A program made the translations under genes and the position numbers. A stretch of 64,000 bases of DNA from Vezdaea acicularis. Taxonomy: Eukaryota. The notes below the pieces were generated by a model. The model saw nothing but the letters and a program-made list of their open reading frames with translations, ran no database searches and was not told the origin of the DNA. Below, one piece after another: positions 6,253-48,406 of the stretch. The DNA is taken from NCBI GenBank assembly GCA_026025075.1, contig JAPEUI010000081.1:1-64000 (forward strand), written 5' to 3'. The first letter of the stretch is position 1; each line of letters opens with the position of its first letter.

Positions 6253-9200
6253 TCACTGGACGACGCAAGTAGCAGAGGAGGAGGAAGAAGTCTCAGCACT
6301 AACCCGATCCAGCCCATCACCCGACTCCGGGCCCATAGTAGCAGGCTGCCCCTCCCCAGGCACCTTCAACGCCGCCGCCGCACCCCCCGCCATCGGCGAG
6401 CCAAGGGACCCATCCTCTTCAAGACCCGTGCCCGTCGTAAACGCCCTCCCCTCAATCACCGGCCTCAGCAGGCCCTCATCCTTCTCGCTCAGCTTCTTAG
6501 AGGGGACGAGCACGCGCGGCTCCTCGGCGGCGGCGCCGCGCATCTCCTTGCTGCGCTCCAGCAGCTTGCCGCCGAGTGTCGCGCACTTGTTGATCGTCTG
6601 GATCAGGTGATTTGGTTTTAGGGGTTTGGTTAGGTATTCGTCCATTTGGGCTTGGATGCAGCGTTCGCGGTCGCCGAGCATAGCGTGGGCGGTCAGCGCG
6701 ATGATAGGGGAGCGCGTCAGGCCCATCGAGCCTTCGTATTCGCGGATGTTGCCGGTGGCTTCGAAGCCGCCCTGGGGGGTGAAGGGTGTTAGTCTTTTTG
6801 AAGGAAAGAAAGGGAAGGACAGAGGTAGGAGCATCCTCTTGTACAGGCAGTCTGTACATTGGAATACATCAAAATTTTACTCACCATTACCGGCATCTGC
6901 ACGTCCATCAATATAACGTCGAAGCGCTTCTCCTTGATCGCCTCGAGCGCCTTGAGACCGTTATCAACAACCGTGACGCGGTGCTTGAACTTCTCCAGAA
7001 TCTTGACCGCGAGCTTCTGGTTCACGGAGTTGTCCTCCGCCAGCAGAATATCAAAGGACTTGGCAGTGTCGGCGTACTCTGGCGTAGCCCGACTCTCCAG
7101 CGCCGGTATCATCGAGTTGCCGAGATCTACGGGATGGCAGGGCGTTGTCATGTACGACGAGATGCCCAGGTCGAGCGCCGTCTTCAGACTGATGGATATG
7201 ACCGGAGCCAAGAGCACGAGTGGGATATTCCTAAAGCAGTCGACCGTCCGTATCTTCTTGGCTGTGTCGACCGAATCGATCAGAATCGCGTCGTATGCGA
7301 TTGCGGTATCGCATTGAGGAACCTGCGACTCAGTCGAGATGACTGTTGGGTTCAGATTGAGAAGCCTTAGCATAGCAGCAATCTGCTCTCCAAAATCGGT
7401 ATGCATCTTGTCGACAAAGAGAATCTTGTGGTCAAAGTATGGCATAAGCTTTGCACCGATGACCGAGAGATCGGACGTCGCAAGTCTCGTAACACAGGTG
7501 AAATAGAATACGCTCCCTTCATCAACTACGCTCTCGACCCATAAATCGCCACCCATGAGATTCACCAGTCGCTTCGAGATGGTCAGTCCTAGCCCGGTAC
7601 CACCGAATCTGCGCGTGGTGGAGCCATCGGCTTGTTGGAAGGTATCGAAGATCAGATCCAGCTTGTCCACCGGTATTCCAATGCCCGTGTCTCGCACGGC
7701 AAACTCAAAGCGGTACTCGTTGTTCGCGCAATCCGCCTGTGACTTTGCCGGCCGGATGCTGACTTCGATCCCTCCTTGCTCCGTGAACTTCGTCGCATTG
7801 CCAACAAGATTGATAATGACTTGACGGAGACGGAAGGCGTCCCCAACGACATGATCCGGTACCTTTGCGTCAACGTAATAGGTAAGATCCAGCATCTTCT
7901 CGTTCGCTTTCACGGCGAGGGTCTTGAGTGCACTAAACACTGCACCCCTCAGCGAGAATGGGATCTCCTCTAGCTCCATCCGGTTCGCTTCAATCTTCGA
8001 GATATCCAGGATGTCGTCGATGATTGTAAGCAGACTATTCGCCAGGCTGAAGACGATGTTCAGCATCTCACGTTGATACTGGGTCAAGTCGGTATCGAGA
8101 GTGAGTTGCGTCATGCCGATGATCCCGTTCATGGGCGTCCGAATCTCGTGAGACATGTTGGCCAAGAACTCTGATTTCGTCCTGTTCGCAAGCTCAGCCG
8201 CTTCTCGAGCGGCGGTGTTCCTCTGGATACTCTCTCGAAGATTCAGAATCATCTGGTTGATCTTGCGCTTCAGGTCGTCCATCTCACCGGACGCATTGAC
8301 CATGATGATACTTGTAAAATCGCCGTCGGTTGCAGCGCTTGTAATGTCTCCAAACGCGCGGACTTGAGACGTCAGGTTCATGGCCATAGTATTCACGTCC
8401 GTTGTAATTTCTTTCCAGAGACCCTCGATGCCTTCTACGTTCGCCTGACCCCCCATCTTTCCGTCGACTCCCACGTCCCGAGCCACTCGCTTCACCTCGC
8501 TGGAGAACATGGCCAAACGATCCACCATGTTGTTGATGGTCTCTTTCAACAGCGCAATCTCTCCAGCCGCATGGACGTCGATCTTCTGACTCATGTCGCC
8601 ACTTGAGACAGCATTATCATCAGTAGCCCTTCCAAAATGAGGTTGTAGACGCAGAAACATACCTTGCAATAGCCTGCGTGACCTTCGAGATTCCTCTCAC
8701 CTGAGCCGTGAGGTTCTGCGCCATGATGTTGACGTTTTCTGTGAGGTCTTTCCATTTCCCTTCGACATTGTCTACTTTCGCCTGTCCGCCCAGAGTCCCC
8801 TCCGTACCGACCTCGCGCGCGACTTTGCTGACCTCAAAGGCGAATGTTCCGAGCCGGTCCACCATAGTATTGATAGTGTTCTTCAGATCCAGAATCTCTC
8901 CTTGTACAGGCACTCGGATCTTCTTGCTCAGGTCACCATTCGCCACCTACACATGAATCTAATTAGCTTGTCAATGTGACACAAAAGGGGACGGTTCCTT
9001 CTTACAGCCGTCGTTACTTTGGCAATCTCTCGCACTTGCGTCGTCAGGTTCATGGCCATGCCGTTGACGTTCTCCGTCAAGTCTCTCCACGTGCCCTCCA
9101 CGTCATGCACCGTTGCTTGACCTCCCAGCTGCCCTTCCGTGCCCACCTCTCGAGCGATCTTGGTGACTTCATGTGCGAACTGCTGCAGTTGGTCGACCAT

Positions 9201-16255: not shown

Positions 16256-16850
16256 TCCCGAGACCTCTTGCTTGTCTTTCAGCCGCCTTGGGACCAAAGC
16301 AGGCTGATCTTTCTGCTCGCTGAATGGTGCTGCGAGCTTTGCGTAACGTAGATGATTTTGTATGGACTCGAGTCCCTAACGAGTCTATTGCAAGAATGGA
16401 TAGAAGACGTTCACACTTGTGCGTAGAGTCGGATAAGGGGGCTTGAGGATGAGAAGGACTGTCACTATGCGCTAGTGGTGAGTTGTTGTGGAATATATAT
16501 TGCTTTTGTCACCACACTTTGATAGGAATGTTTTATGACCGTCTAGTAAGAGGGTCTTAGATATGGTAAGATGGCATTTAGGTTGTTAGAGGGCTGTCGA
16601 TTCTTTGGGGCACGCTGGTCGTCCGTCTGAATGACACCGCAACAATTGCAAGAACATGGTTGTCTACTGCCCCACATAAGCTTTAAGTCGATGCAGCCAA
16701 GGCCATCTCGTTATGTGGTCTCGGATAAACACTTATCCCTAGCGCCGAGGAGCTCTGCCAAATGTTTTCCTGCTGGAAAGATTAGTCTTTAACATCTCCT
16801 CTTGATCGCGCATTAGCTGTACTTCAATCACATCCCTCTCTTGTAAGAGG

Positions 16851-18377
16851 ATGGTACGGGTGTCTTGTCTGCGCCCCAGCTTTCTGCGTGCCTCTCGGAA
16901 TCGCGCAAGATGGGTGCAGCCACTAGCACATCGCCCCTGGTCCTCCTCTACTGCAACTGCTACCAGTCCAGACAGCCTGGGTGCAGACTCCCCTACTCCG
17001 ACCAAGCCAGATCATCGTAAACTAGCATCCCAACAGCAGCTTTATATCACATCTAAATATACACCTGGATCGCCCATGTTCCTCCCCCATGGCACGAGAA
17101 TATTTAACAAGATAGTTAACTACTTACGTTCTCAATATCTAAAGTATGGATTCGACGAAGTCATCACGCCAACTATATATAAAAAGTCGCTATGGGAGAA
17201 GTCTGGTCATTGGGAGAATTACAAAGACGACATGTACGAGGTGAAGGGGAGAGGAGCCTCCGGTATCAAAGAAGGAGTACAAATCGGGGAAGACGAGCAA
17301 TATGGGCTTAAACCGATGAATTGCCCCGGACATTGTCTGATGTTCCAAGCGCAGAACGTAAGCTACAGAGAGCTTCCCGTTCGATATGCAGACTTTAGCC
17401 CACTGCACAGGAATGAGGTTTCTGGAGCGTTAAGTGGATTGACTCGAGTCAGAAAGTTCCACCAAGATGATGGCCACATCTTCTGCAGAGCGTCGCAAAT
17501 ACAGACAGAGATCGTGTACACGTTACAATTCCTCAAGGAGGTACTTAAAAAATTCAATCTCGCCAACTACGATCTAGTCCTATCGACTCGACCAATGGAA
17601 GAGTATATTGGCATGATCGAAGAATGGGATAGAGCGGAAGAGGCGTTGAGAACTGCTCTCGATAAGAACAGAGAGCCGTGGTCCGTAAGTGAAGGAGATG
17701 GTGCTTTCTATGGCCCAAAAATCGACGTGATACTCAAGGACCCCAGCGGCAAACGCCACCAAACGGGCACGATACAACTCGATTTTCAGCTACCACAAAG
17801 GTTTGGCCTTCAATATGAGATTCCCATCCTTGACCCTGAGACTGGTCGCCTACTTCATCACGAGGTTGCGAGGCCAGTTCTCATACACCGTGCGCTCATC
17901 GGTTCTATCGAAAGATTTCTGGCTCTGTTGATTGAGAACTATGATGGTCGCTGGCCACTCTGGCTTGCGCCGCGACCATTGATATTTATCCCAGTCAACA
18001 ATTCGCCCTCCGTCCTCGATCTCATCAACAGCACCATCTCTACAAAGAAACTTCAGGAATCGTTCGAAGGACAGGTAAAAATCGATAGCAGCCAGCGATC
18101 TTTGCCAAAGCGAATATCGGATGCCAAGATCAGCCACTATGCAATCATCGCGATCGTGGGTGATAGAGAAGCAAAACGTGGGACCTTCTCTATCGACGTC
18201 ACTGGCCTTTCAGCGGATGAGCAAAAGGCAGCTCGGGAATGGCTGTGGGACCGCCAAGAGAAAGCTGCTCTTGAGAGCGAGCAATTGGTAAAACCGTGTT
18301 ACACAAGACAAGACTGGCGATCGATAGAAGTTACTGCTGATGAGCTAGCAGGGCTCTTAGGACACCTTGGACATTGA
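16851..18377 (+). CDS. MST1: Mitochondrial threonyl-tRNA synthetase
   Basis: Arg-rich presequence; class II ThrRS motifs LWEKSGHWENY, LKPMNCPGHC, LHRNEVSGALSGLTRVRKFHQDDGHIFC, GAFYGPKID, TIQLDFQLP, IHRALIGSIERF. No N-terminal editing domain. Confidence 0.95.
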   Translation: MVRVSCLRPSFLRASRNRARWVQPLAHRPWSSSTATATSPDSLGADSPTPTKPDHRKLASQQQLYITSKYTPGSPMFLPHGTRIFNKIVNYLRSQYLKYGFDEVITPTIYKKSLWEKSGHWENYKDDMYEVKGRGASGIKEGVQIGEDEQYGLKPMNCPGHCLMFQAQNVSYRELPVRYADFSPLHRNEVSGALSGLTRVRKFHQDDGHIFCRASQIQTEIVYTLQFLKEVLKKFNLANYDLVLSTRPMEEYIGMIEEWDRAEEALRTALDKNREPWSVSEGDGAFYGPKIDVILKDPSGKRHQTGTIQLDFQLPQRFGLQYEIPILDPETGRLLHHEVARPVLIHRALIGSIERFLALLIENYDGRWPLWLAPRPLIFIPVNNSPSVLDLINSTISTKKLQESFEGQVKIDSSQRSLPKRISDAKISHYAIIAIVGDREAKRGTFSIDVTGLSADEQKAAREWLWDRQEKAALESEQLVKPCYTRQDWRSIEVTADELAGLLGHLGH

Positions 18378-18593: not shown

Positions 18594-19238
18594 CTATGGA
18601 TATAGGGATGCTTGCAAAGGGGGCACCAGGCTCTCAGCCCTACGGCCGAACCCTTCTCCATAGCCACAACTTGCTCCCCGGCAGCGACGCCTTGACCCTG
18701 ATATGGAGCATTCGTTTGGAAAAAGATACTTGTTCCGCTGGAATGTTGTCTCTTGGTACGCGTCTTTCGATGTTGAGGCCCTGTTACAACCGTTTTCGTC
18801 GATAGGTCGTGAACGTTGACGTCGCTGTTTATTTATCTCCTCCATGATGAATGGTTTCCAAACCTTGAACTCTATAAAGAGAGAGCTTAACTGGTCATAA
18901 TCATCTTTATGATTGCCTGTGCCTACACATCTGCAATTCATCCTGCAGTATTCTTCTCCGGATGGATACATTCTATGCAGTTCTCTACTCTCAGCGTCTT
19001 GCGCAACACAGCGAACGCCGAGGAGATCCGTGCAGAAACAGTCGAATGACGGGCTAGTCCCAGCGGGGCCACAGAGGTGGAATGGTCGATTGATCAGGGG
19101 ACTAACGCCCGCCACAAGCTCGGCACCTGCGATTATGCCATCATTGTTCGGGCCGGGACAAATGAGCTGATTCTTAGTGGTGGCAAAGGTTACGCCAATG
19201 AGAACGAAGGCGAGAAGTGCGCGGGCTCCGTCCATCAT
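18594..19238 (-). CDS. Secreted cysteine-rich protein, 8-Cys family member A
   Basis: Signal-like MMDGARALLAFVLIGVTFA, then C..C..CFC..C..CRMNCRC. Confidence 0.7.
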   Translation of the reverse strand: MMDGARALLAFVLIGVTFATTKNQLICPGPNNDGIIAGAELVAGVSPLINRPFHLCGPAGTSPSFDCFCTDLLGVRCVAQDAESRELHRMYPSGEEYCRMNCRCVGTGNHKDDYDQLSSLFIEFKVWKPFIMEEINKQRRQRSRPIDENGCNRASTSKDAYQETTFQRNKYLFPNECSISGSRRRCRGASCGYGEGFGRRAESLVPPLQASLYP

Positions 19239-20626: not shown

Positions 20627-21268
20627 ATGTACCTCCTACGCTATGCGACGACCTCCCTTCTCCTACTCACCCTCTCCCTAGGCTGGAAGCTCTCATGCCC
20701 TGACTCACCCACCACCATCTTCTCCCTCCCCTCGCCCTACACGCAACTCTACCAGCTCTGCGCCTTACAAGCCAAATCGTTATTCCTGCCGACGCTAGGC
20801 TGTTCGTGCGGGCAGGACGGGGAGCCCTACTGCGTCCCCGTCGATCGGTTCGACATGGCGCTGCGCCGGGATTACCCCGGATTGGTCGAGCTCTGCATCT
20901 CTACCTGCCATTGTCTACCCCCGTATGAGCCGCCACCGGGCTCACAAGGCCAAGGGCAGGGTGAGCGGCAGAGTGAGAGTTCCGAGGAGGATACACCGTT
21001 GATGGGCTTGGACGACTACCTCACCGCGCAGGAGCACCTCATTACGAGGCAGGCGCTCCAGAACATTCGGTACCGAAAGTCGATGCCCGCGTACCCGAGA
21101 AGGAGGAATGATGGGAAGCCCAATGGTCCGGGCATGCGGGCTCACAGGTCTCTGGAGAGCTGCTCCTCCGATTCACCAATACCACGGGGCGGGCTAAGTA
21201 GATTGAAGATTGGTGGGCTGATGCGCGCGAGTTGCTTAGACCCTTCTGCAAGGCTCAGGAAAAGGTGA
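20627..21268 (+). CDS. Secreted cysteine-rich protein, 8-Cys family member B
   Basis: Signal-like MYLLRYATTSLLLLTLSLG, then C..C..CSC..C..CISTCHC. The 3' end is uncertain. Confidence 0.72.
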   Translation: MYLLRYATTSLLLLTLSLGWKLSCPDSPTTIFSLPSPYTQLYQLCALQAKSLFLPTLGCSCGQDGEPYCVPVDRFDMALRRDYPGLVELCISTCHCLPPYEPPPGSQGQGQGERQSESSEEDTPLMGLDDYLTAQEHLITRQALQNIRYRKSMPAYPRRRNDGKPNGPGMRAHRSLESCSSDSPIPRGGLSRLKIGGLMRASCLDPSARLRKR

Positions 21269-21739: not shown

Positions 21740-22498
21740 TTAGCTAACCCATACCAGACCATCTTGTGCCCCGCAGCATGTAGTCGATACGTAAGTTGAA
21801 TTGCATAGACAGGGCTTAGCCTCGGACTCGTCCCTTTTCCAATGGGACGAGCCGGCACATATGCCTACAAATGTAGGCAGCCCGATGTCTCCTGTCTTGC
21901 TTCCTACTACATGGCATTCGACGCCTCTGCAGTCATTCCGCCTCCTGGGCTTTTCACAGTCGCTGTAGGAGGAGCAGCTCCTAAAATTGCAATTCCTTGT
22001 GCTCCGTGGAAGACCTTCGGGTTTACTGCTGACTGCCTCCCAATGGTTGAAGTCCGCTATCGCCTCGTCAATAACATCGATGCTAGAACTCCATTCCTCT
22101 TCCATTGCCTTTTCCCTATCCCTCCCCCGACTGTGGGAATTCATCGGTGTTTTTATCCAAAGGTCAAACTCGTCTTCCGTAGGCTTGACGCAGCGACATA
22201 GGCGCATACAAGGTTCGACCAAATGGCGGTTTTCAGCAAAGTAATCTGCAGCCTCCGGAAGGCACACTACCACCCCTGAAATAATGCATCTACAGCCTAG
22301 ATTCTTTCCTGTCGTCGAATAGTGTGGGCAGATGCCTGCAAGGCTCCAGTGTGGCGGTGGAATGGACACGTCAGGTATAGGCGAAGTGGGACAAACGACT
22401 TTGTACTCGAAAGCGATGGCACCTGGAAGCCACCTAAAGGTCAGGATTAAGGCGAGCAGCAAAAGTTTGGCCGGATTCGGAAGCTGGTAAAGAATCAT
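21740..22498 (-). CDS. Secreted cysteine-rich protein, 8-Cys family member C (three Cys modules plus KR site)
   Basis: Signal-like LLLLALILTFRWLPGAIA; 8-Cys module, 6-Cys module, then WKR followed by PCLCNSTYVSTTCCGAQDGLVW. Confidence 0.8.
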   Translation of the reverse strand: MILYQLPNPAKLLLLALILTFRWLPGAIAFEYKVVCPTSPIPDVSIPPPHWSLAGICPHYSTTGKNLGCRCIISGVVVCLPEAADYFAENRHLVEPCMRLCRCVKPTEDEFDLWIKTPMNSHSRGRDREKAMEEEWSSSIDVIDEAIADFNHWEAVSSKPEGLPRSTRNCNFRSCSSYSDCEKPRRRNDCRGVECHVVGSKTGDIGLPTFVGICAGSSHWKRDESEAKPCLCNSTYVSTTCCGAQDGLVWVS

Positions 22499-24396: not shown

Positions 24397-27300
24397 CTAC
24401 TTCTCCGAACCCTCTTCATCATCACCAGTTTCGTTGGCTTTCTCACTCGCCTCGGTGGCTTTTTCGTCGTTTAGCGCCCTTTCTTTCCTCTGTTTCCTGG
24501 ACATGATACTCCAGCTTTTACGGCCAGCCCCAGTGCCGATATTAGGACTGTTAGCAGGGCTCTCAACACTCTTCACCTGTTGAGAGTCGAACATACTCTC
24601 ATCGTCAGGTTCTCCTGGTGTGGATGGCTCAGTGGACTTCTTAGAGAATAAGCTAGACTTATCCTTCCAAGGGATATTGAACTTGCTGGAGCTACTCTTG
24701 CGCGAAAGCTTCTGCATGAAGGTCTCTGATTTTTCACGAGCACTGGGTGTTTGGCCCCCTTCAGAAGGTGTTCCGGAGATTGATCGATCAAGCGATTCGT
24801 GAGATTCAGAAGTCTCTGTGGTTTCTGTATTGATAGACCTTGAGTCCCGCGATCTGCGATGATTATCAGGAGAAGCATCTTCTGGGACGGAGCTCAGTTC
24901 CTTGTCTTTGTCTTTGTCTTTCTCCTTTTCCTTGTCTCTCTCCTTGTCTTTCGTCTTGATCTTTTCCTTCTTCTTCTTCCCTGTTTCTGCAGCCTTCTCA
25001 GCCCTCTCAGCTTTCTTGTTAGCATCTGATCTAAAAAGGTTGAACGAGAAGGCTGGAGCGGTTGGGTTTAGCGTTTGTGCATTGGTAGTGCCATGAGAAT
25101 CTTCCGGGCTGCCAACAAGTCTGGTCGAGTTGTATTCATGGAAACCCTCTGAGACCGTAGAGAATCTTCCGAGAGACGTAGAGCTAGCAGATGGTTGATT
25201 AAGCGACTGCCGTCGAGAAGGGACTCCTGACGACCAAGCATCGCTATGCATCGACCAGTCACCACTACTGAAAGGACCTCTGCGAGAAAGAGAGCCCGCA
25301 GTATCCCTTGCGCCCCATCCAAAAGGTTGGCTGTCGATCGAGGGGGCTGGAAATAGATTTTCGTGCGAAGAGGTTGAGGCTGGCCTTGGTGAGGGAAGGC
25401 TGTGGCCCAAGAGCTTTGACGGTTCGAATGGATCTGAATCAGACCTAAATTGAGCATAACGGCTGCCTTGGTGGTATGGTGGGTATCTTGCGGCCGCAGG
25501 ACCGTTGCCCTCGGTACTATCTAGAGGACTTGTGCCACGACGATTGAGCAAGTTTCCCACGCTACCCACTAGCCCTCCGCCCCACACAGAAGCGTTGGAA
25601 TGGCTGCCACTTCTTGCTCTTGTACCGATAGGATCTAGCTTTTGTTGTTGTTGTTGATAGTTCCTTGGAAATGATTGACTCTGGCCTGCTTTCAGAGATC
25701 CGAAGAGGGGGGGCTCTGTATCAAGATTCTTTCCCCTTTGACGACCGAGATGGAAGAGATTAGATAATCTTCGAGCGCTGGAGACGTTAGCTTCGCTAGA
25801 CTCTCCGATCGCTCCAAGAGATGCATGATTCGAGTTGAGAGAGCGCTTATCGGTATCAATAAAGGAGTCAGATCCGCTGGGATGATGGGCCAGATTTTGT
25901 AAGCTTGTTCGCGGGCTGGACCACCGACTTGTGGATCGACTTTCTGATGAGTGTGGTGAGTTTGGAGATTGAATCAATTGAGCGTCGAGACCAAAGGGAA
26001 CACCAAAACTGCTCATGGTAAAAGGGGAAGATCCTTGAGGATGCTTGAAATCAGCATCGAAACTTTCAGCGTCGTCATCTCCCAGTAAGCCAGATGGAAG
26101 ATAGCCCGCAGCAGTTGGACTGATAAGAGCCCCGCCAGCGAGTGTGTCAGCATCGGCCTTGTTCATGATTGGTGGATGAGAATTCAGTGGACCTAACTTC
26201 TGGCCAGCGATTGTATTGTAGTAAGGCGATGAGGAGGTGTAGGAAGATGGAATCCCTGTAGGTAAGCCACCGAAAATTGGACCGTTAGGCCCCTTTGTGG
26301 AGTCTGTTGATGAGAAGCCCTGCGTTGAAGCATTTGTACTTGAGCGAGACTTCCTTTGACGACTACGGCGGTGCTTGAGTCGTTTTGTGCCATTCGTATC
26401 TACTTCTGTCGTGGAAGAGATCAGAGGTAAGCCGTGCATATAAAACTGATTGCGCCAAAATTCAACCATCCCTTGCGCAGTTTTGAGGTCTTGAAGAGCC
26501 TGCAGAATAATTCGTTAGCATTTGGAGGACATAGGTGGCCGCACTTATTTGAGATATACCTTTTCGTGAGCTTTGTATACCTTAGAGAGCTTGTTCCTCG
26601 CCTCAGTCTGCTTTTGAAGCCAATGCGCTTCATTTTCCCTCTCAACCCGAACTCTATCATTTACCTCGCTACCCGCTTCATCAGGAAATAACCTTTTTCT
26701 CTCTTCGTCGAGCGCTTTGATCTCAATACCCTTTGCCTTGACTTCTTCCTCTAACGTCGGAATCATTTCTTGTTCTTCTTGTAGCTTGGCTCGAACCTCA
26801 TCAATTTGACGTTCAGCTTCTTGTTGATAGCGGATCTTGTCAATTTCGATCTGCTCAGTCTTTTTTTGAATCTCGTTCATCTCCTTCTGCCAGCGGACTA
26901 GGTCCTGACCCATTTTTTTTCTCTCCCCCTGTTTCTGTTGTAGTTGTTGTTCCTTGTCTTTTCGTTCTTTTGCAATCGCCCTACTGGCACGCTCAAGTTT
27001 CGTGAGGTCCTTCTTGAGATCTGCGCTGCTATCCTCTTTTGCTTTAATTTCTTGTTTTAGGGACTCATGCAGCTGAGCAAGCTCCGTGCGTGAGTTTTGG
27101 AAGTCCTCATCATCTTTAGATATCTGTAGTTGAACTTCTTCCGTCTCTCGTTGCAAACGCTCCAGTGCTGCTTGAAGCTGTTCAAGGGTTTCTCCGTAAC
27201 TCACTAGCTCTTCAGAGCCATCGTTCCGATCGCCATCAGAGAATGCAGGAGATGCAGGTTCTATAAGGTCCGGCGGCGAGTTTCGTCGAGGTTGCGTAAT

Positions 27301-27946
27301 TTTCTTTCCGTAGGAAGCGCCATTCTGATCTTTTGAAGACGCAACTCCCACGGACATAGAAACGAGTGGATCTGTATTCAAACCATGGACTCGTACTTGA
27401 AGTGAGCCATCATGCTTGTCACGTGCCGAAGCTGTCCCAGCACCCTGACTATCCCCTAAGGTAGAGCCTCGCCTTGACTGGCTCCCCGGAGGAAGTGCCT
27501 GCGTCTGTACACGAATAATGTTGCTACTTCCCTGGAATGTGCCATGCTTTCGCGCGACAATGCGAATGCTGTAGAGGGTGTTCGGTGATAGCCCGGAGAC
27601 CGTGAAGAGGCCGTCATATCGAGGAGGACTGCCAGCGGAACAGCCGTTGACTAAGATGTTATATTGCTGGCCACTGGGCGTATCAACCGGTGGATTCCAA
27701 CGAAGGTTGACTGAGTCGGCTTTGATTTCTGCGAGGGAGACCGATGGAGGTGCCGATAGTTCGACGCCTAGTATACTGATAAGTTCTTCCGTGGACTTCT
27801 TGCCGATCTGACTGCAGCGATGCACAAGCCTTAAAAGAGTCAAGGGTCAGTGACAGAACCTTGGGACTTCAAATAAGCTATCTCATGAACAGCACATACC
27901 ATCCAAAAGCTCCACAAGCTATTCCAAACTGTACCAAGTATGACAT
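24397..27946 (-). CDS. Fibronectin type III domain, coiled-coil and disordered C-terminus protein (3 exons)
   Basis: Exon 1 MSYLVQFGIACGAFGW (hydrophobic anchor); FN3 pattern SVNLRWNPP...YNILVNG...VSGLSPNTLYSIRIVA; long coiled coil; intron at about 26558-26502 joins the 690-aa ORF. Confidence 0.85.
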
Positions 27947-30509: not shown

Positions 30510-31550
<1,041 letters not shown>

Positions 31551-32827: not shown

Positions 32828-35256
32828 CTATCTTCGGCCCATATAACTTTTCATAAACTCATCCGCCGCGTCCGAGCCCAGGCCGCCAAATCCGTTTGAG
32901 CCCATATTCTGACTAGACGCTTGTGCTGCTGTGACCTTTGCGTGTAATGCTGAAGTATTTTGGTCGATCCATTGCAGCGAGCTTAAATGGGAATTTAGTA
33001 CCCTGACAATCTGTGATAGCTGCAAGAGCACGGACGATTAGCTTGACTCTCCAAAGCGTAAGGTATATATATATGTGTAGACATACCGAGTCATCAGTCT
33101 TATTGTTTTTGCTGAGTGAGGACGACGCAATGTTTATTTCGTCGATCATAGTTGTCAAGTCCGTGCCCATACCTTGCAGGCGTGACGAGAGCCTCTCAGC
33201 CATTTGATAACTACCCAGCACAACATTAGCGCTTCTGTTGGTTGGGTCCACAATGATAAACTTACGTTCTCTCCCGCTCTTGATCCGGTCCCTGGAGCCC
33301 TTCGCCCGTGACCATCTGCTTTCCCATCATTTCTTCAACCTCTCTTTCATACCTGTCTAGGAAGACTGAAAGCTCTTCCTGCTGATTCTCAACATTTGAT
33401 AGCTGACGAGATATCTCTGTGCTTTCACGTTCGGCCTGGTATGTGACACCATAAAGATTTGAGATCTTCTCCTGATTTTCAACAAGAAGACGATCCCAGC
33501 CAGCTACTTTTTCTGCATGTTTTTGGAATGATTTTTGGTGGAGAGAAAGATCGTTCGCCCAGCGTGTGATAATCTCATCCATTGTTTTATTAGATAACTT
33601 CGATTGAGTCGTCGGTGCAGGGCCACTCGTCGAAACGGCAGCTTTTGGGGTAGCTGTAGTGCTAGCACTGGTAGCAGGAGCAGATATATTAGGAGCAGTG
33701 GCACTGGTAGAAGATGTAACGTTAGAGGTAGGGGCCGAAGACTTTGCTGTTTCCTTCCCACTGGACATGTTGCCGAATAAGCCTCCAGATGCGGTAGCTG
33801 TGCTTGTAGGAGCTGGGCTCGCTGAAACAGTGCTTGCTGGAGCAGATGTCCCACCAAGCTTCCCTGGATTAAGGAAACCTCCAGAGGAAGCAGATGTTAC
33901 TGGAGCTGTTGCAGAGGAGGCTGCAGCAAAGGTACTTGACCCGATAGAAGAAGACCCTGGAAGGGCGAAGGTCGGCGTTGTCGTCGATTGACTAGCCGAA
34001 GTGGTTGAGAAGGAAGGGAACTTGACGGTTTGACCGGGTCCCGAAGTTGTTGCACCCCCATTAGATGTGAATGGAGCGGCTGATTGATTGGGCGCACTAC
34101 TGGAAGGTGTTTGGCCCCCGAAGATACCCAGATTCGATATTGGTTGTTGAGGTGTATTAGATGTTAGAGTACTTGTAGATGGCTGAGAAGTCTTTGGCGT
34201 GCCAAAAATATTCTGCGACGGGTTGGCTGCTGGCGTTGTTGATCCGAACAAATTGGCCTTCGGAGCACCCCCAGACAAAGCAGGGGCATTACTCGAAGCG
34301 GGGGTAGAGAGGGGCGTCGCTCCAAACATGCCCCCAGTTGAAGCTGCCCCGATGCTCCCGAAGATACTTGGTTGTGCAGGAGCCCCTGAACTCTGCTGTG
34401 TGGGAGCATTAGAGGTGTTATTTGTCGGAAAGAGGCTATTTGGCTGATTTCCCGCTGGATTCACGAAATTGAAATTGCCTCCACTACTGGCGTTACTCGT
34501 AGGTGGTGGCCCAGCCGGAGTAGTCGATGCAAATGAAAAGGGCTTGCTTGTAGCCGGCGTCGTAGATCCGATCCCACTAGAGCCTGTATTGATACTTATC
34601 AGACTGCCGAAAAGTTGTGCATTAGTTGTCTGAATCTGGGGGGTTGTCGATGGTTCAGAAGTCTTGTTAGGTGTAGAGAAGATTCCTCCCGTGCTTTTTG
34701 TTGGGGCATTACTTGTACTAGGCTTCTGGCCAAACTGAAAGCCAGTGCTAACTGGAGCATTGCCCGCCCCATCTTGGTTCAATAGATTTGGTGTTCCTGC
34801 ACCTCCACCAAATATTGAGGGAGTCTGAGTATCGGCCTTTTTATCCTGTTTACCTTGTTTAGCCCCGAAGATTGAAGTGGCTCCTCCGCTGCTATCACTG
34901 GACGTTTGACCCCCGAGCATGGAAGCCCCTTGGCCAGCGGACGATTGTGCCCCCCCAGAATTGAATAGTGAAGCTGCGGATGAGCCACTTGGTTTTCCAC
35001 CGAATATGCCCGAGCCCCCCGGGCTAGTACTTGAGCCGGCTATGCCACTTCCAAAGATGCCTGTGCCTTGGCTACCTTTAGTTGTGCTTCCTAGACTGCC
35101 AAACGTAGGTCCACTCGTTGAGGCGGTGGCAGTGTTTGCTCCAAAGATAGAGCCTTGGGTGTGTGCTGTTGACGTGGGAGTAAAAGGGCTCGATGAGGTG
35201 GACTGGCTGGATGGTGTCGCTCCGAAAGACCATGATGGTTTCTGATTCTGATCCAT
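32828..35256 (-). CDS. NSP1: FG-nucleoporin Nsp1/Nup62 (3 exons)
   Basis: Many (S/G)IFG and LFG repeats; Nsp1_C region KLSNKTMDEIITRWANDL...WDRLLVEN...PDQERERTYQMAE...LSQIVRVLNSHLSSLQWID. Confidence 0.95.
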
Positions 35257-35686
35257 GTTGACCTATAAGAAAAGCTCCAAGACAAGTGCCTAGCACGCGT
35301 GCCTTGGTTATAGCAGATCCCAAGTTCGACGCGAAAGCTAAGTTGCAAGATACCAAAATAAATTGTTTGCTAGGTCTGTTTACAAAGGGGGAAGAAACGA
35401 ATTGTCAAAAAGCACTATCAGATTCGCGCCGTAGATGAACGAGACTACTTTGTTGGTAGATCCTGCAGGGAGACGTGTTGCGCGCCGCAACTTTGTGGTT
35501 CGCTTAGTCGATAAGTTAGTGGCGGGTTAAGCGAGCGCCTTAATCCGGTTGGAAGCTTTGCCTTTATGTTACCACCTTCCTGGCACTGGAGGCTAATTGA
35601 TTGATCTTCCAAACTTGCTGCATCAAGAGGGCTAGCTTGTGAGAGGTAAAAGCAACTCTTGGACTGAGAAGATCAAATCCGACGCT

Positions 35687-37493
35687 ATGCCTAGCTTTCC
35701 GCCGTCACCAACGCTTCTTCCTCCTAGGAGGAGCCTCGAAGATCCTGGCGCCCGTGATCTAGGTGAGGAGCTCCTCATTGGTCCAGCTGATTCCTTTGGG
35801 TATAATCAAGTTGACTGACTGATGTATGTTTAGAATCTTCTGAAAATGAGGATGAACACTTCTCCGATGCTTCTGAAGGACGTCCTTCTGGAAGAAATTC
35901 ACCCGTGCCTCTTACAAGAGTGGAGAAGGTTGATGATGAACCAAGCTATGGCGAGGTTCCAGGTACCGCAGCGTATGAAATGCGGGCACAAGACGCTGTC
36001 CCGGACGTCGTTGGCGTCGCTCCTCATTCTTCCAAATCATCTTCTCCCCGACCAACGAGCCGTCCAGCTACTCCAGGAGGAGAAACAATCCCTTTCACTG
36101 TTGTTGAAAAGGTCGATCCGTCGTCCCCCAGCCATGGAGAAGTGCCTGGCACTACAGCGCATGCAGCTAGAAGAGCTGATGCTGTTCCTGACCTTGTGCT
36201 CAAAAGTTCTGAATCGGGCATTGCTTCGGGAGAGGTGTCTCCAATCCGTTCAAGGTCAAATAGTACGCCAGGGGACCTCCCAATACCTATTACGAAGGTG
36301 TCCAAAGTCGATACAGCACCGAAACATGGTGAGATACCAGGGACGTATGCTTATGAAAAACGAAAGGGCGATGCCGACCCTGATATTGTAGAAGCTGTCG
36401 AAGGTATGGGTTGACCGTCTTTTGTTTCCTGTTTCCAGCGAGCCATTGACCGAGTCAGGTTTGCCAACTTCACCGTCTCATAGATCCCAACCCCTGAGCG
36501 GTATAAATACAGAACCTAGTCACACGTCCGACCTAGTGGAGCAGGACGAGACTGAGGGTAAAGATGAGGGATTTGGTGATGATTTTGATGATTTTGAAGA
36601 GGGAGAAGAGGGCGAGGATGATTTCGGAGATTTTGATGACGGACTTCAACAGCCTAATGCAAGCATGTCCCATGAGACGCAAGCAAACTATTCACCTCTC
36701 CCTTCCTTTGTAAGTAAAAGTGATCAGGTTGCTGGAATGCCACATTCGTTGAATGCCAGAATTGCCAATCCGTAGGCGGCGGTTGCTGATCAATCTACAG
36801 CAAATGCTAGATTTCGACGAGCTTGATAGCCCTTCAGAAGTTGTCGCAGCAGCTACAAACCATTTCAGAGATCTATTTACGTCCACTGAGAGTATAGAGC
36901 CATCGCGCCTTGAGGCGCTGCCACGTGAAAATACTATATTTCTCACGGACCGTAGCGCGTCTTTATGGGCACAGCTCGTTGCACCCCCCCCATTGCAGCC
37001 GCCTAACTGGCTACGCTCTCGGATAAGGCGACTGTTTCTTGTTTCCCTCGGTGTACCTATAGATCTTGACGAGATTTTACCAGCATCAAAACAAAAGAAA
37101 CTCATACTTCCATCCATTCACGTGTCCTCATCACCTCGCCCTTCATCGGATTCTCGACCTCGCGGTGCCCAATCAAAGACGGAAGGTCAAAGTGGCTCAG
37201 GTGCATCGGAAAGCTCTCAAGGCCGGACAAAGCCACGAAAAGGCCCACCACCACAGCCAGAGATGGATCTTATTGGCGCAAGAATATTGTGTGGGACGAC
37301 AAACGCTGCATTGGAAGGATTTTCTGATGATGAGTTGATGAAGCATATGCAGGAACTGGAAGACTTGACTCAGCGAGCGGGGGAGGTGCTGGAGTATTGG
37401 CTACGGAGAAAAGATGGTGCAATTGGGGATAAAGAAGCATTCGAAGGCGTTATCGAAAACCTGGTAAAGCATGCTAGAAAGGTTAGGAAATAG
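35687..37493 (+). CDS. LAA2: Laa2/YBL010C-like AP-1 accessory protein (DUF5102), about 4 exons
   Basis: Acidic FGDDFDDF and DDFGDF gamma-adaptin-ear motifs; conserved SLWAQLVAPPPLQPPNWLRSRIRRLFLVSLGVPIDLDEILP; three N-terminal xKVD..P..GE.PGT.A...R..DA.PD repeats. Confidence 0.72.
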
Positions 37494-38606: not shown

Positions 38607-41600
38607 ATGCAGAGCCGGGACACATCTGGCGTGTCGAAGCATGAAGCATCAACCCACCACACCGCCTTCGATCATGTCGCGCGAAGTGAGTACGCGTCAG
38701 ATATGCTAATGATTAATACGTCAAATGCTAAAAAAATGTATAGATCCTGAATCGGACACTCACGATACCCATTTAAGTAACGGCACCGAGCTTCAGAATG
38801 GATTCGATGAATCCCCAAGTAAGAGACGGAAGCTCACCGACGCGGATGTCCGGCCTCGGTCACTATCCAGGCCAGTCTCGCCGCCGTGGAGGAGGATTGC
38901 CGTCGAGGGCCCAACATCGTTCGTGGAAGGAGGGCGAAGGAAGTCTTCAAGAACAAACCAGGTGCCACTGGAATTTCAACCCCCGTCTGAGAAACGCCAG
39001 ACGCGCTCAACCAACAAACGTCCTAAGGGCCCAAAGAGTATCTATGGTGGTGCAGCGATTATTTCTACTCCACCTGCCCCGCAGTCTTCAGATCCCCCTA
39101 AACCCAGACGAGGTCGTCCACCTGGTTCTGGTAAAGTGCAACAGGGTCAATTGGCAGGCAAGACAATCGCAGGTGCTGGGACCCCAAAAAGTGCGCCACC
39201 GAGGGTCAACACTCCAAAGTCATTCAAGGTCCCGATGACTAATTCACCGTCGAGTATCATGGATCAACCTCGTACACCAACCAAACAGCCAACACGAGCG
39301 AAAGAGTCGAGTGAACTGCAACCAACACGAAGATCCTCTCGTGCTTTCAAGCCCGCAAGGAAGTTAGAGTTGAACGGATACAACGGTGAACGCAATGATA
39401 ATAAATCTCCGTCAGTGTCTAAAAGTCCCCAAACACAGCGCTTTCGATTCAAAATCAAAATGCCGAGAGTACCGGTGCTACATCCTGGACATATTGTTGG
39501 TGCACGGCACTTTTCATCATTCAGAGATTGGTTTGAACACCAAGATCCGTTGAGTGGAGAGGACAACCAGAAGTTATCCTATGATGACGCTGTGCGGGAA
39601 GCTCATATTCGTCAGCGCATTGAAGAAGCCACTGAGCCTGGTGGAGTTTTGTCTCAAGAGAGGTGTGCTGTGTATCAGCCAGAGCCCCAGGAAGACCCAC
39701 CTAAGCAGTTCTCACATCAAGATCATCTTATTAGCCAAGCGATGCATTTTCAACGTCTAATGGACCGTGAGAGGAAGTCACATATGATATTAGCTCGCAA
39801 GATTGCACACGCTGCGAAGAGTGAAGGGAGAAAGATTCTTGAAAAGGGCAAACCGAAGACAGCGGAGCAAATTGAACGGGAACTTGAAGAGCAGCGCGCG
39901 GCCTTATATCGCCTTGTATGCAAGGACTTGCAGAAGAAATGGGGCTTGATCACCGAGGAAGTGAACAAAAGACGCCTCGCACGCTGGGAAGAGGAAGAGG
40001 AGGAACGTGGAAAACTGGCGCTCAATAAAATGCTCCAACACTCTAATCACTTACTTGATGCAAGACTAGCCCGCCGCTCCTCTGGAGCATTTTCAGATGA
40101 TGATAGCGATCAGTCCGACGATGAGGAATCAGCTTCAGCTTCGGGACATCGAGACAGCAGCAACATGTCTAACAGCGAATCAGAAAGTGAAGAAGATGCT
40201 CAGATTGACGGCGCGGACAATGATGAAAACCTCACCATTGAGCAGCTGCAGCAAAAATATTCTCGTCTCTCAGACTCGGCATTCCCAACTAGGTCTCCCT
40301 CGAAGTCTTCACTACACGACGAAGATCTTGAAGATGAGCTAGCTTTGCCTAAGGAAGTCAGTTACACTCCAAGGGCCACGGAGCGTGTGGCAGGCGTGGC
40401 TGATGTTGAGCTCGAGGATGTTGATGAGATGCTAGTTGATGATAGTGACAGCTCTACAGACATGGACGAGGATATGGGTGATAGCGATGAAGGTGATGCC
40501 ACTGATGAGGACATAGAAACGGAAGAGGAACATGAATCCGGTTTATTAGGCTTCTTCGCCCCTCAAGAACTTGGAGACGATACAAGACCTCTTATTGACA
40601 CCACCATGGGAGACGGCGAAGACGACATAGACGAGCTCTCGCTTATTCCCGGCCCTTCACAAACCCCCGCCGGTCCTCCATTTATGCAGGAGCCAGCATC
40701 AACGCGAAACAGCTTAGAAACACCTGATAGTCATCAAGAGCCCAGTAGTCAGGCCTCCCCAGGTACAAATGCAACCACAAAGGCATCAGAGCCAGATTCC
40801 CGTTCGTCCATCGAACTACATGACAGTCGTCAAGTATCACGAAAGGCAACGCCACAATCATCCAGCATCCCCAATATTCCAATACCATCGCTTCTTCGAG
40901 GCACTTTACGAGAATACCAGCACTACGGACTCGATTGGCTTGCTGGTCTCTACGCCAACGGCACAAACGGCATATTGGCTGACGAGATGGGTCTCGGCAA
41001 GACCATTCAGACCATAGCTCTCCTTGCCCACCTTGCTTGTGTCCATGAAGCTTGGGGGCCTCATCTGGTTGTTGTTCCTACAAGCGTTATGCTAAATTGG
41101 GAAATGGAATTCAAGAAATGGTGCCCCGGGTTCAAGATCTTGACATACTACGGCACGCAGGAAGAACGAAAAGCAAAACGGAAAGGGTGGGGTAACGATG
41201 ATACATGGCACGTTGTCATTACGTCCTACCAGCTTGCTCTGCAGGATCAGACTTCTTTCAAGCGAAGGAATTGGCATTACATGGTGTTGGACGAAGCCCA
41301 TAACATCAAGAACTTTCGCTCTCAGCGATGGCAAGCCCTTCTCACCTTCAAGACAAGAGCAAGACTTCTACTGACTGGGACGCCGCTTCAAAATAACCTA
41401 ACAGAGCTCTGGTCATTGCTCTATTTTCTTATGCCTTCGGACATGGCAGAGGATGGGATTGGCGGCTTCGCAGACCTTAAAGAGTTCTCAGACTGGTTTA
41501 AGAAGCCCGTCGAGCAAATCCTGGAGCACGGACGAGAGACCATGGATAATGAATCTCGCATGATTGTCACCAAACTGCACAAACTTCTGCGGCCTTATCT

Positions 41601-43530
41601 GCTCCGACGACTGAAAGCGGACGTGGAGAAGCAAATGCCCGGCAAATACGAACACGTCGTCTACTGCCGTCTTTCTAAACGCCAGCGTCATCTTTACGAC
41701 GAGTTCTTAAGTCGTGGCAAGACAAAGGAGACATTAGCTGGGGGTAACTATCTCTCAATCATGAATTGTCTAATGCAGCTTCGCAAGGTCTGTAACCATC
41801 CTGATCTCCACGAGACGCGTGAGATTGTAACATCCTGCCGAATGAGCAAGTCCGCAGTTGCAGATTTTGAAATCAATGAGTTTCTAGTCCGCAGGAAGCT
41901 ACTACGGGAAGAGTCTGAAGAGAAGGTTAATCTAGACTTCCTAGGCTTACTTCCTACTTCAAAAGAAGCAGAGTCGCGGTTAATGCTTGACACAAGCGAT
42001 AGGCTTATGGAACATGGCCCATTGCTCGAGCAATGCTGGGAGCAGAAGAACCGGATTTATGCTCAAAATGCTTTTGATGGGTCCTCTATGCATTCCACCT
42101 CGACCTACGTAAACGGCACCGTTCAGCGGTCTCGACTGATAGCCCTCGAGCAGACATACTATCGCAATGCCCTTCGACGCTCACACCGTCCAATCTATGG
42201 TAGCGGCCTGATAGAGCATTTGACTCTCGGTTTGCAACATCGACCCTTCGTTCCGAAACCAATACGACGAGCTCAGATGTCTGAATGGCTGACGGACTCC
42301 ATGTCTGCATTGAGGGAAATGATCCCTACGCTCGCGCAAAGGTCAATCATGATGCAGAGTGTAGTTGAGAAATTCGGATGCATCACGCCAGCCGTGTACG
42401 CACGTGAGATCCTGCCATTGTCCCTGACCGAACATGGTATGTTGGCCATCCAACAAGCACAATCGACCTACAAGGAGGATAATTTCCACGATGCTCGGAT
42501 CCGTCTTTCAATCGCATTTCCCGATAAACGACTGCTTCAATATGACTGTGGAAAACTCCAGAGATTAGACAAACTGCTACGAGACCTGCAATCAGGCGGC
42601 CATCGTGCCCTGATATTCACGCAGATGACAAAGGTTTTAGACATCCTGGAGCAATTTCTCAATATTCATGGCCACCGCTACCTGCGCTTGGATGGCTCCA
42701 CAAAGGTCGAACAGCGTCAAATTCTAACCGAACGCTTTAATAATGATGACCGGATCCTGGTCTTTATCCTTTCCTCGAGGTCTGGAGGGCTTGGCATCAA
42801 CTTGACTGGAGCCGATACAGTAATATTCTATGATCTGGACTGGAACCCTGCAATGGACAAGCAATGTCAAGATCGTTGTCATCGTATTGGCCAAACCCGA
42901 GACGTTCACATCTATCGATTTGTCACCGAAGCAACTATTGAATCCAACATCCTGCGGAAAGCCAATCAGAAGAGAATGCTCGATGATGTCGTGATCCAGG
43001 AAGGAGAATTCACAACAGAATATTTTAACAAAATGGCAGTTCCAGATATTCCTGATGATGACGCCGAGGTCCTTGAAGGACGCTCTGCTGCGAATGCCGC
43101 CTTGGACCGTGTTCTAGGAGGTCAAGTCGGTGGTGAGGTTGAGAAAGTGCTCGAGCAAGTCGAAGATACGGAAGATATCGTTGCAGCAAAGAAGGCCAAG
43201 AGCGAGCTGGTGCACACTGACGATGCAGATTTTGATGAGAAAGTTGTCACAGGCAGTGGTGCTGGGGCAACCCCTAGAACACCTGGTACACCCTTTGAGC
43301 AGGCCGGGCAAACTAGAAACGTGTCCATTGTCCCGGGAATCACCGACGACCTTCAAGATGCTGTTGCTCTTGTCAATGATGAGGACGACCTCCCACATGT
43401 CGATGAGTATATGATCAAGTACATGGAATGGTTCCTAGAAGACGTACCCGTCGATGTTCCGCTTGATAGGCTGAAGAGTAAGAGCAAGAACAAGAAGAAC
43501 GCCTACCGGGTCAAGAAGCACACCAAGTAG
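38607..43530 (+). CDS. SWR1: Swr1 chromatin-remodelling ATPase (H2A.Z deposition)
   Basis: HSA region; SNF2 motifs GILADEMGLGKT, LDEAHNIKN, LLLTGTPLQNN; split ATPase with FPDKRLLQYDCGKL and QCQDRCHRIGQTRDV. Frame-compatible first exon 38607-38685 with intron 38686-38743 (start inferred). Confidence 0.96.
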
Positions 43531-47119: not shown

Positions 47120-48406
47120 ATGGCCACACCTTCGACTACAGCGGAGACCTCTAATAGAGGCTCCGCCGACGTGGACTTGGAGCGGGGAGCCGAAGGCGAA
47201 GGCGATAACCACGCAGCGGCCATAGCGCCTACAAGCACTAAATCGACGAGCTCTGACGTGCGCAATTCAGATGAGAGTCAGTACTCCGCAAAAGCAGTTC
47301 CAAAGATGCAACTAAGATTTCGAACAGAGCAACCCAACCTGGCACAGCGTGTATCGCGATCGTTGAAGCGAAAACGAAGGAAATTGATATCGCCTCTGAC
47401 CGCAGATGTGAGCGACGACCGCTATGACCACTGGAAATATGAAGCTCGTAAGGTGGCTGATGAACTCCAGTCATATATCTTGACTAACACTAATAAACAG
47501 TGGAGGACCACCCTGACGGCTGGCCGCGGATGGCGGCATATCTTAACCTGTCAGACAACGCCCTAATCTATCGCAAGTTCGGATATTTGCGCAACCGGGT
47601 CCTCCTTAACAAGCAAGCAGAGATAATCGAGCTTGAAGAGCGTCTCCATAACCTCGACCTCCGCGACCAGGACAACGATGAATGGCGGCTCTTCTCACGC
47701 TCCTATGACAACTCACAACCTACCACGCCGCGACGCGCGCTCCTCCAGCAAATCGAGGACAAGCTGCGCGAATATGATGACCTGCTCTTTCGTCAGCAGA
47801 AGCTCGTTTCCATTGGTAAGCCCAACGAGCGTGACCATCTCTCGCTCTTCAACTGGGTATGGAACAATAAGCCCGTCGTCAACGAAGACTTCGACTTCAT
47901 GTTCCACAAGACGGACCTCGTCAAGCTTGAGAATAGGCCAGAAGACAATTGGTTCGATGGCATGCTGCAGGATCTCGTCATGGCGATCTTCAACAATAAC
48001 TTGGTGCGCTTCGTGTTCGGGCGCAGGGACGATAATGCGAGGATTGGGGAGGATAAGACGATCACCTTCTTGACGCCAGAAAGGATCGATACGATGGTCA
48101 AGATTGTAATGGCATGCATCACGATGCTCCTCCTTATTATTCCGGTCATATTACTCTATGTCCTGAATACGAGCAAGAACTCGAAGTTAGGCATCGTACT
48201 GGCCTGGATATTTCTCTTTGCGGTTGTGACGGCGACATTTACGCAGAGTAGGAGGTACGAAGTTATTGCTGGCACGGCTGCGTAAGCTTTTATCCCCTCC
48301 CGTGTAAGATTGATGAATGACATGCTGACGGCTTCGGCTTAGCTATGCTGCGGTTCTGACCGTTTTCCTGGGCCAGCAAAGCCCTGGCAGTGCTTCAGGG
48401 GGCTGA
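47120..48406 (+). CDS. DUF6594-family membrane protein (multi-exon)
   Basis: EDHPDGWPRMAAYL...IYRKFGYLRNRVLLNKQAEIIELEERLHNLD; three C-terminal TM helices ending EVIAGTAA-YAAVLTVFLG. Confidence 0.82.

Follow-up and report, generated by a model that had tools for sequence, protein, structure and literature searches.

Several kinds of secreted protein that are processed by Kex2 have been described in fungi, and with these we compare a family of Cys-rich proteins represented by two genes, termed C and D, in a 64 kb stretch of DNA of Vezdaea acicularis (contig JAPEUI010000081.1, positions 1 to 64,000; the window). The Kex2-processed pro-domain (K2PP) effectors SnTox3, ToxA and SIX1, SIX4 and SIX6 are, as described in PMC8528282, secreted Cys-rich fungal proteins with KR, RR or LxxR in a disordered stretch, where a cut would part a folded piece from a second piece in the secretory pathway. 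The family to which C and D belong resembles them in both respects. By the same account the K2PP pro-domain is a disordered, poorly conserved N-terminal segment within the first half of the protein (PMC8528282). By contrast the family has its site in the last quarter (residue 222 of 252 in C), with no N-terminal disorder-prone pro-domain, and the piece behind the site is modelled as folded, is predicted to be disulfide-bonded and glycosylated, and is the best conserved part. No relation of sequence or fold to any K2PP effector was found in PDB sequence and structure searches. The class 1 precursors, i.e. repeat effectors, Kex2-processed repeat proteins (KEPs) and ribosomally synthesized and post-translationally modified peptides (RiPPs), also have a kexin site before a short conserved peptide, and are described as several peptide repeats between KR sites with little else (PMC8528282). 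The family differs in that each protein has a single tail (149 of 151 proteins; this and all other counts on relatives rest on the best 150 of 341 profile matches), placed behind two or three folded Cys domains, and tandem peptide copies between dibasic sites are absent.

Two further systems bear a more limited likeness. The killer preprotoxins K1, K28 and KP6 of yeasts and Ustilago are cut by Kex2 into subunits that stay together, some of them through disulfides. The likeness to the family is one of mechanism only, and a two-chain product is one possible fate of its members; no killer-toxin-like match turned up in general PDB searches, none of which was aimed at these toxins. The inhibitor cystine knot is matched by the spacing of the 6-Cys domain of the family (C-x3-C-x5-C-x3-C-x-C-x(20-25)-C) and by 11 structural matches that are mostly knottins; on the other hand the Z scores are low (2.0-3.0), and the domain has a long last loop and lies inside a multi-domain protein. 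Kex2-type processing itself is already known. What is new here is a secreted family with a Kex2-type site and a conserved C-terminal module, the latter modelled as folded and predicted to be glycosylated.

C and D are probably two diverged paralogues of one large family of secreted Cys-rich proteins that are predicted to be N-glycosylated. The window is a fungus-like eukaryotic stretch with a GC content of 50% and short introns that have GTAAGA or GTACGT donors. When its 64 kb were searched in six frames with regular expressions, the motif PCxCNSTYxSxxCCxxxxGLVW was matched exactly twice, in C and in D. Comparison of C with exon 3 of D by BLASTP aligned the tail alone, with 16 of 25 residues identical and E 1e-8, while the segments of C outside the tail all gave E >10 against the same exon. 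A preliminary description of this DNA had claimed that the shared C-terminal motif is more conserved than the rest of the two proteins, and these comparisons bear it out. The DNA of the two tails has many synonymous differences (e.g. Ser TCA in place of AGC, and Cys TGT in place of TGC), so that the likeness has been kept at the protein level and is not that of a recent DNA copy.

Gene C (21740-22498, minus strand) is a single-exon coding sequence of 252 amino acids plus stop, read as an open reading frame translation (P0001), and has 8 + 6 + 4 Cys. The database protein P0004 is almost identical and has the same 252-amino-acid gene model. A putative signal peptide, assigned by eye, occupies residues 1-29 (22412-22498), with the core KLLLLALILTF followed by AIA↓FE. 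It is followed on the same strand by the N-terminal 8-Cys domain (22190-22393; C36 to C103, ending in CxxxCxC), the 6-Cys domain (21857-21991; C170, C175, C181, C190, C195 and C214), a Kex2-type dibasic site of the canonical [KR]R class (21833-21838; K221-R222 in HWKR↓DESE) and the tail (21743-21832; D223 to S252). The core of the tail, CLCNSTYVSTTCCGAQDGLVW, is the motif match at 21749-21811, and contains the sequon N233-S-T at 21794-21802. The minus strand of 21740-21838 thus reads ...HWKR-DESEAKPCLCNSTYVSTTCCGAQDGLVWVS-stop. The tail of C stops two residues past the Trp, without the Glu and the K-L-G-E-L present beyond this point in most relatives, and is the shortest among the 151 proteins examined, with 10 residues after CC. 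We note that the Glu after the Trp, missing in C (21743-21748, minus strand), is 99% conserved in the relatives, and that one relative, P0018, is truncated much like C. The stretch past the Trp may be dispensable, or C may be decaying.

Gene D lies on the plus strand, and its three-exon structure is a predicted model with splice sites read by eye. Exon 1 (59695-59832, 46 codons) carries the putative signal peptide WAVFLSLIFGVSSS and is followed by a GTAAGA donor at 59833; intron 1 (59833-59882) has a TTAAC branch-like site and then AG. Exon 2 (59883-60176, 98 codons, with a GTACGT donor at 60177) encodes the N-terminal Cys domain and a Gly/Ser linker, and its start Y-L-S-C matches Y-[IL]-x-C in the relatives P0058, P0119, P0068 and P0082. 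Exon 3 (60234-60590, 118 codons plus stop; P0002) encodes the knottin-like Cys domain, a linker and the tail. The knottin-like 6-Cys core (60279-60404; C16 to C57 of P0002) has the spacing C-x3-C-x5-C-x3-C-x-C-x24-C. The Kex2-type site (60432-60440) is R67-K68-R69 in VRKR↓QLDG, with an aliphatic P4, and the spacer and tail run from Q70 to L118 (60441-60587). Here the tail core, CTCNSTYHSEACCDSAEGLVW, is the motif match at 60480-60542 with the sequon N86-S-T at 60489-60497, and is followed by E and then by a diverged ...FGKEL end; the plus strand of 60435-60590 reads ...VRKR-QLDGTDIVLEAAPCTCNSTYHSEACCDSAEGLVWEPRHAQLFPVFGKEL-stop.

The preliminary description had marked 21740-21838 and 60435-60590 as the ends of the two proteins, and both stretches begin at the Lys of KR and end with the stop. 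It had also given both proteins the order signal, N-terminal Cys domain, linker, second Cys domain, KR and tail, which is found in both, with 8 + 6 Cys upstream of the tail. The count does not hold for D, where the predicted gene model has 9 + 8. Three Cys of D go beyond the family pattern: the N-domain has one of them (SPSVC), and the other two immediately precede the knottin-like core. The total for D under the predicted gene model is 21, an odd number.

A word-based protein search with C matched only its own database twin; one with D exon 3 found one relative, and a three-sequence profile two more. A five-sequence profile run against 1.84 billion representative proteins gave 341 clusters at E <=1e-3, 39 of them at E <=1e-10. 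Most matches cover profile positions ~175-284 (i.e. the 6-Cys domain, linker and tail) and sit at the extreme C-terminus of the protein, whose length is ~250-330 or 500-600 residues. Of the 149 relatives listed, 148 contain the tail core C-x-C-N-x-[ST]-[YFWL]-x-[ST]-x-x-C-C, which is single-copy in 149 of 151 proteins. The tail consensus of the family is C[PA]CNxTYVSxxCCxxxDG[LM]VWExxxxKLGEL, followed by up to ~30 more residues; conservation in the alignment is 90% or higher at every one of the four Cys and at the Asn, Tyr, Ser, Gly, Trp and Glu of the consensus. Chance likeness of C and D, or a recent local DNA duplication or gene conversion between unrelated genes, would be suggested by the short length of the match (25 residues) and by nothing else we have seen; it is refuted by the pairwise E of 1e-8, by the hundreds of relatives in the 341 clusters that share the motif and by the many synonymous differences between the two DNA copies, so that its probability is negligible.

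The preliminary description had pointed to an N-S-T sequon in the motif. The position after CxC is N-x-S/T in 148 of 148 relatives. Its middle position is not constrained (A 44, S 37, G 14, T 12, and others) and the third is filled by T (126) or S (22); selection is therefore likely to act on the sequon itself. This pattern suggests that the tail passes through the endoplasmic reticulum (ER). An invariant sequon and even Cys frameworks fit secretion as far as can be judged from sequence, and the N-termini of C and D, as well as those of two local paralogues A and B described below, are hydrophobic by eye. We considered two other signals at the C-terminus. K-L-G-E-L as an ER-retrieval signal of the HDEL type is rejected on the grounds that most tails run past G-E-L, by up to ~30 residues, and tails ending exactly at G-E-L were seen in three of the listed relatives. 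A glycosylphosphatidylinositol anchor is ruled out by a C-terminus that is not hydrophobic.

The preliminary description had suggested an undescribed system, which the following searches support. No family was matched in Pfam at E <=1 by C or D exon 3, nor at E <=0.001 by A, B or D exon 2. Among 41 relatives scanned there was no match at or above a curated cut-off; three weak rows at E <=0.01 came from two proteins and scored 15-16 bits, far below the cut-offs. The ESM Atlas gave no usable match for the queries P0012 and P0058. No published description of the family was found in the literature on lichen secretomes, Kex2, knottins and K2PP effectors, preprint supplements not being covered.

The Kex2-type site is a conserved feature of the family. 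The column of C R222 (P1) is Arg in 113 of 119 rows of the alignment. P2 is occupied by K in 50 rows, by G in 35 and by R in 22. Gly predominates at P3, and 47 of 106 rows have Leu at P4; at P1′ the counts are 49 for D, 21 for S, 14 for G and 9 for A. Sorted by class, the 119 rows have [KR]R in 68, LxxR only in 31, [IVM]xxR in 5, another xxxR in 9 and no aligned Arg in 6, some of which have KR adjacent to the column. Since alignment could have drawn the arginines together, the sites were recounted free of it in 145 database relatives, from the last Cys before the tail up to the tail itself. [KR]R or LxxR was present in 130 of these 145 linkers, compared with 486 of 2560 (19%) length-matched random segments of the same proteins; for [KR]R the corresponding numbers are 95 of 145 and 295 of 2560 (12%). 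An earlier, cruder count of basic sites agrees. The preliminary description had tied its case to a KR kept upstream of the motif in homologues, and on this point it was right. The site lies 7-56 residues after the last knottin Cys (~8-25 in most relatives), and between it and the tail is an acidic, low-complexity spacer of 5-55 residues in the alignment, 5-35 in most relatives; in one relative the basic site is much farther from the tail.

The P1 residue of Kex2 sites is almost always Arg, P2 prefers Lys and tolerates variation, and P4 prefers Leu or another aliphatic residue, the working motifs being KR, RR and the expanded LxxR (PMC8528282). By this account Gly is not one of the preferred P2 residues (PMC8528282). 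A canonical or expanded motif is present at the candidate processing site of C (HWKR↓D) and of D (VRKR↓Q), and the family consensus L-G-(K/R/G)-R↓D fits the specificity of Kex2. We would put the chance that kexin cleaves after the Arg at near even or slightly better.

All full-length members examined have the same order: the 8-Cys N-domain, single or doubled, is followed by a disordered linker, the 6-Cys domain, the linker with the Arg, the acidic spacer and the tail. The N-domain has eight Cys and ends in CxxxCxC, and the forms of 500-600 residues have two copies. A hidden Markov model (HMM) grown from one N-domain matched 54 of 97 long members, 21 of which contain the domain twice. The six Cys columns of the 6-Cys domain of C are each at least 90% Cys in the family alignment, and those of the D core are 97-100% Cys. 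The N-terminal domain of C is homologous to that of P0003 (i.e. paralogue A; E 3e-10), and links directly to the N-terminal regions of the family members P0058, P0154 and P0064. When the regions upstream of the C-terminal module were compared by BLASTP with single linkage, 87 of 102 proteins, including C and A, fell into one component; the regions were cut 100 residues before the tail, so that part of the 6-Cys domain may remain in some sequences. Since the upstream regions are homologous and in the same order, the tail is the end of one family and not a portable tag. The suggestion of the preliminary description that it is attached to variable, unrelated cargo is thereby not supported.

Two paralogues in the window lack the tail, and flank gene C. 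Paralogue A (20627-21268, plus strand; P0003, 213 amino acids plus stop) has a signal-like start, the 8-Cys N-domain and the linker, and ends ...ARLRKR-stop, directly after the dibasic R-K-R. It has two Cys left in place of the 6-Cys domain. A lost tail exon of A was looked for, and no tail remnant or Cys-rich frame lies downstream in any frame. Paralogue B (18594-19238, minus strand; P0008, 214 amino acids plus stop) has a signal-like start and an 8-Cys N-domain, followed by a degenerate 4-Cys C-terminal part, and is weakly linked to the family member P0108 (E 0.001).

The tail might itself be the product, i.e. a glycosylated two-disulfide peptide of ~30-60 residues released by kexin as a signal or antimicrobial, with the N-terminal part as carrier or pro-region. 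No other part of the family is nearly as well conserved, a Kex2-type site lies directly upstream of the tail in 130 of 145 relatives, and bioactive peptides released by Kex2 are an established fungal class (PMC8528282). Yet the N-domains keep an eight-Cys framework of their own, modelled with a predicted local distance difference test (pLDDT) score near 90, and they are duplicated in 21 of the 54 members matched by the HMM and diversify among paralogues, which is unexpected of a mere carrier. Moreover there is one tail per precursor without repeats (149 of 151), and the tail-less A and B are still open frames. We therefore consider this rather improbable.

Structures were predicted with AlphaFold2. 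The model of C has a mean pLDDT of 75.5, with ~86-93 in the N-domain (residues 51-110) and mostly 41-57 in the linker of residues 121-165. Its C-terminal module is at 68-90; successive blocks of ten from 171 to 210 have 86, 68, 90 and 87, and residues 211-220 have 83. The model of D exon 3, calculated with 150 aligned sequences, has a mean of 68.1, with 72-85 in the 6-Cys part and 75-79 in the tail. The D linker is lower (53 for residues 61-70 and 58 for 71-80, and <50 at 67-70), so that the Kex2-type site of D lies in the least confident stretch of the model. The piece behind the site has pLDDT 72-88 over the C and D models, and in D the tail is modelled as two short strands (at CxC and Y-x-S) and a helical turn at CC.

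Foldseek searches of the PDB with the D exon 3 and C models gave no match at E <=0.001. Comparison of the D exon 3 model with 48,161 chains by VIA-align gave 11 rows with Z >=2 (2.0-3.0), the best having Z 3.0 and a root-mean-square deviation of 2.6 Å over 37 aligned residues. All 11 chains are small disulfide-rich peptides or domains, mostly spider, scorpion and plant knottins, that cover the 6-Cys part; the tail of D is barely covered. We regard knottin-like as a fair label for the modelled 6-Cys domain, membership of the knottins not being proven. A wide VIA-align search with the whole C model found unrelated proteins and no Z above 2.5. A sequence search of the solved structures with the family profile gave no relative; its one row, at E 0.67, was taken as noise. 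The 8-Cys N-domain of C (22190-22393, minus strand; cf. P0058, P0082 and P0119), modelled with high pLDDT, has no convincing solved match in the whole-model search; we claim a new fold neither for it nor for the tail. A complex prediction of the D knottin part with the D tail scored 0.00, the alignment being unused and the partner fold uncertain, and has no weight on either side of whether the two associate.

These models bear on the possibility that the tail is an integral C-terminal domain that is not cleaved, either as part of a 10-Cys module with the knottin or as a separate binding domain, in which the Arg motif would be structural. Residues 171-252 of C have pLDDT 75-90 across the KR (bar 68 at 181-190), loss of the tail went along with loss of the 6-Cys domain in A and B, and a P2 Gly, which is poor for kexin, is found in 35 of 119 rows. 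Against this, the spacer between the Arg and the tail varies over 5-55 residues and is acidic and of low complexity, the D linker is at pLDDT 53-58, and dibasic or LxxR sites are enriched approximately fivefold over controls, with the P4 Leu expected for kexin. An uncleaved domain is on this basis possible, but we think it unlikely.

The reading that we favour, and think probable as a whole, is that the family is secreted and glycosylated, is cut by kexin, and has the tail as a shared biogenesis or targeting module. The precursor would enter the ER, where the tail Asn beside CxC would receive a glycan and the tail would fold as a small hairpin with a helical turn, stapled by two internal disulfides. 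In the Golgi, kexin would then cut after the Arg, so separating a fast-evolving body (i.e. N-domain and knottin) from a constant glycopeptide of ~30-60 residues. The tail would serve the body, as a handle for folding and quality control or as a piece for sorting or wall-docking, and would not be the main product. It is read as a common module of this kind because diverged paralogues of one genome share the tail while their folded N-domains vary.

Several observations weigh against this interpretation. The linker of C at the site is short and has pLDDT 75-83, and in this model the knottin and tail of C may be one compact unit that stays together. The joint loss of the tail and most of the 6-Cys domain in A and B is explained equally well by a joint domain and by decay. 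The P2 Gly of 35 of 119 rows may be poorly cut by kexin, or another protease may act, and the conserved L-G-x-R-D could be a structural turn instead of a cutting site. The Glu and K-L-G-E-L that are absent from C are kept in 116 of 151 proteins, and C may thus be in decay. Of 93 long members that start with Met, 50 passed a crude test of whether the start is hydrophobic; many gene models may have wrong starts. Finally, restriction of the family to lichens would rest on 14 named of 30 representatives looked up, all of them records of the metagenome-assembled genome type, among the best 150 of 341 matches.

Organism names were present on these 14 of the 30 representatives, and all 14 are annotated as hypothetical protein. 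Six are from Vezdaea aestivalis, one from Vezdaea acicularis, four from Caeruleum heppii, two from Chrysothrix sp. and one from Chaenotheca gracillima; Puttea exsequens supplies a fifteenth named protein, which belongs to the cluster of P0011. The remaining 16 representatives are from metagenome assemblies. The named carriers belong to Lecanoromycetes, Arthoniomycetes, Coniocybomycetes and unplaced leotiomyceta, and we take them all to be lichen-forming ascomycetes. There are at least six paralogues in Vezdaea aestivalis and at least four in Caeruleum heppii. Restriction to lichens may be a lead, and is not a result.

Very little is known of the exchange of lichen fungi with their algae and microbiome. 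One third of the Xanthoria secretome is reported to be without annotation, and to be preferentially switched on in the thallus (10.1101/2024.08.16.608140). The fixed order of the family, with its invariant glycosylation site and a kexin-type site before a near-constant tail, offers a testable handle on this dark part of the lichen secretome. The tail is a simple search key for members in any genome, and the Arg site predicts the mature products. The idea of the Kex2-processed fungal effector is extended from N-terminal pro-domains to a conserved C-terminal module, and should the family prove to be confined to lichen-forming lineages of several classes, it would be a candidate for a symbiosis-linked trait. 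More tentatively, and with a low probability in our view, the tail and Arg site could be a dedicated C-terminal module for processing, quality control or targeting, or a constant glycopeptide that is co-released as a symbiosis signal. Such a module would have been invented once and kept near-unchanged across several classes of lichen-forming ascomycetes, maturing, sorting or releasing a fast-evolving Cys-rich repertoire. If true, this would be a lichen-associated secretion or peptide system without a described counterpart.

The neighbouring genes were taken from Pfam matches on long open frames of the window. Those on the plus strand are a class II tRNA synthetase (16806-18377), LAA2 (36753-37493), an SNF2/HSA helicase (38713-43530) and DUF6594 (47497-48285). 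On the minus strand are a hybrid histidine kinase (6789-8696), an fn3 protein (26545-27846), 14-3-3 (30728-31468), an Nsp1-like nucleoporin (33262-35262), an amidase (56714-57589) and a PPR protein (62971-63999). The family members are thus surrounded by ordinary housekeeping genes, in what is not obviously a special compartment. DNA of the D locus (59600-60700) was also met elsewhere, though in no listed RNA run: more than half of the sampled words are present in three sequencing runs (one study labelled moss metagenome).

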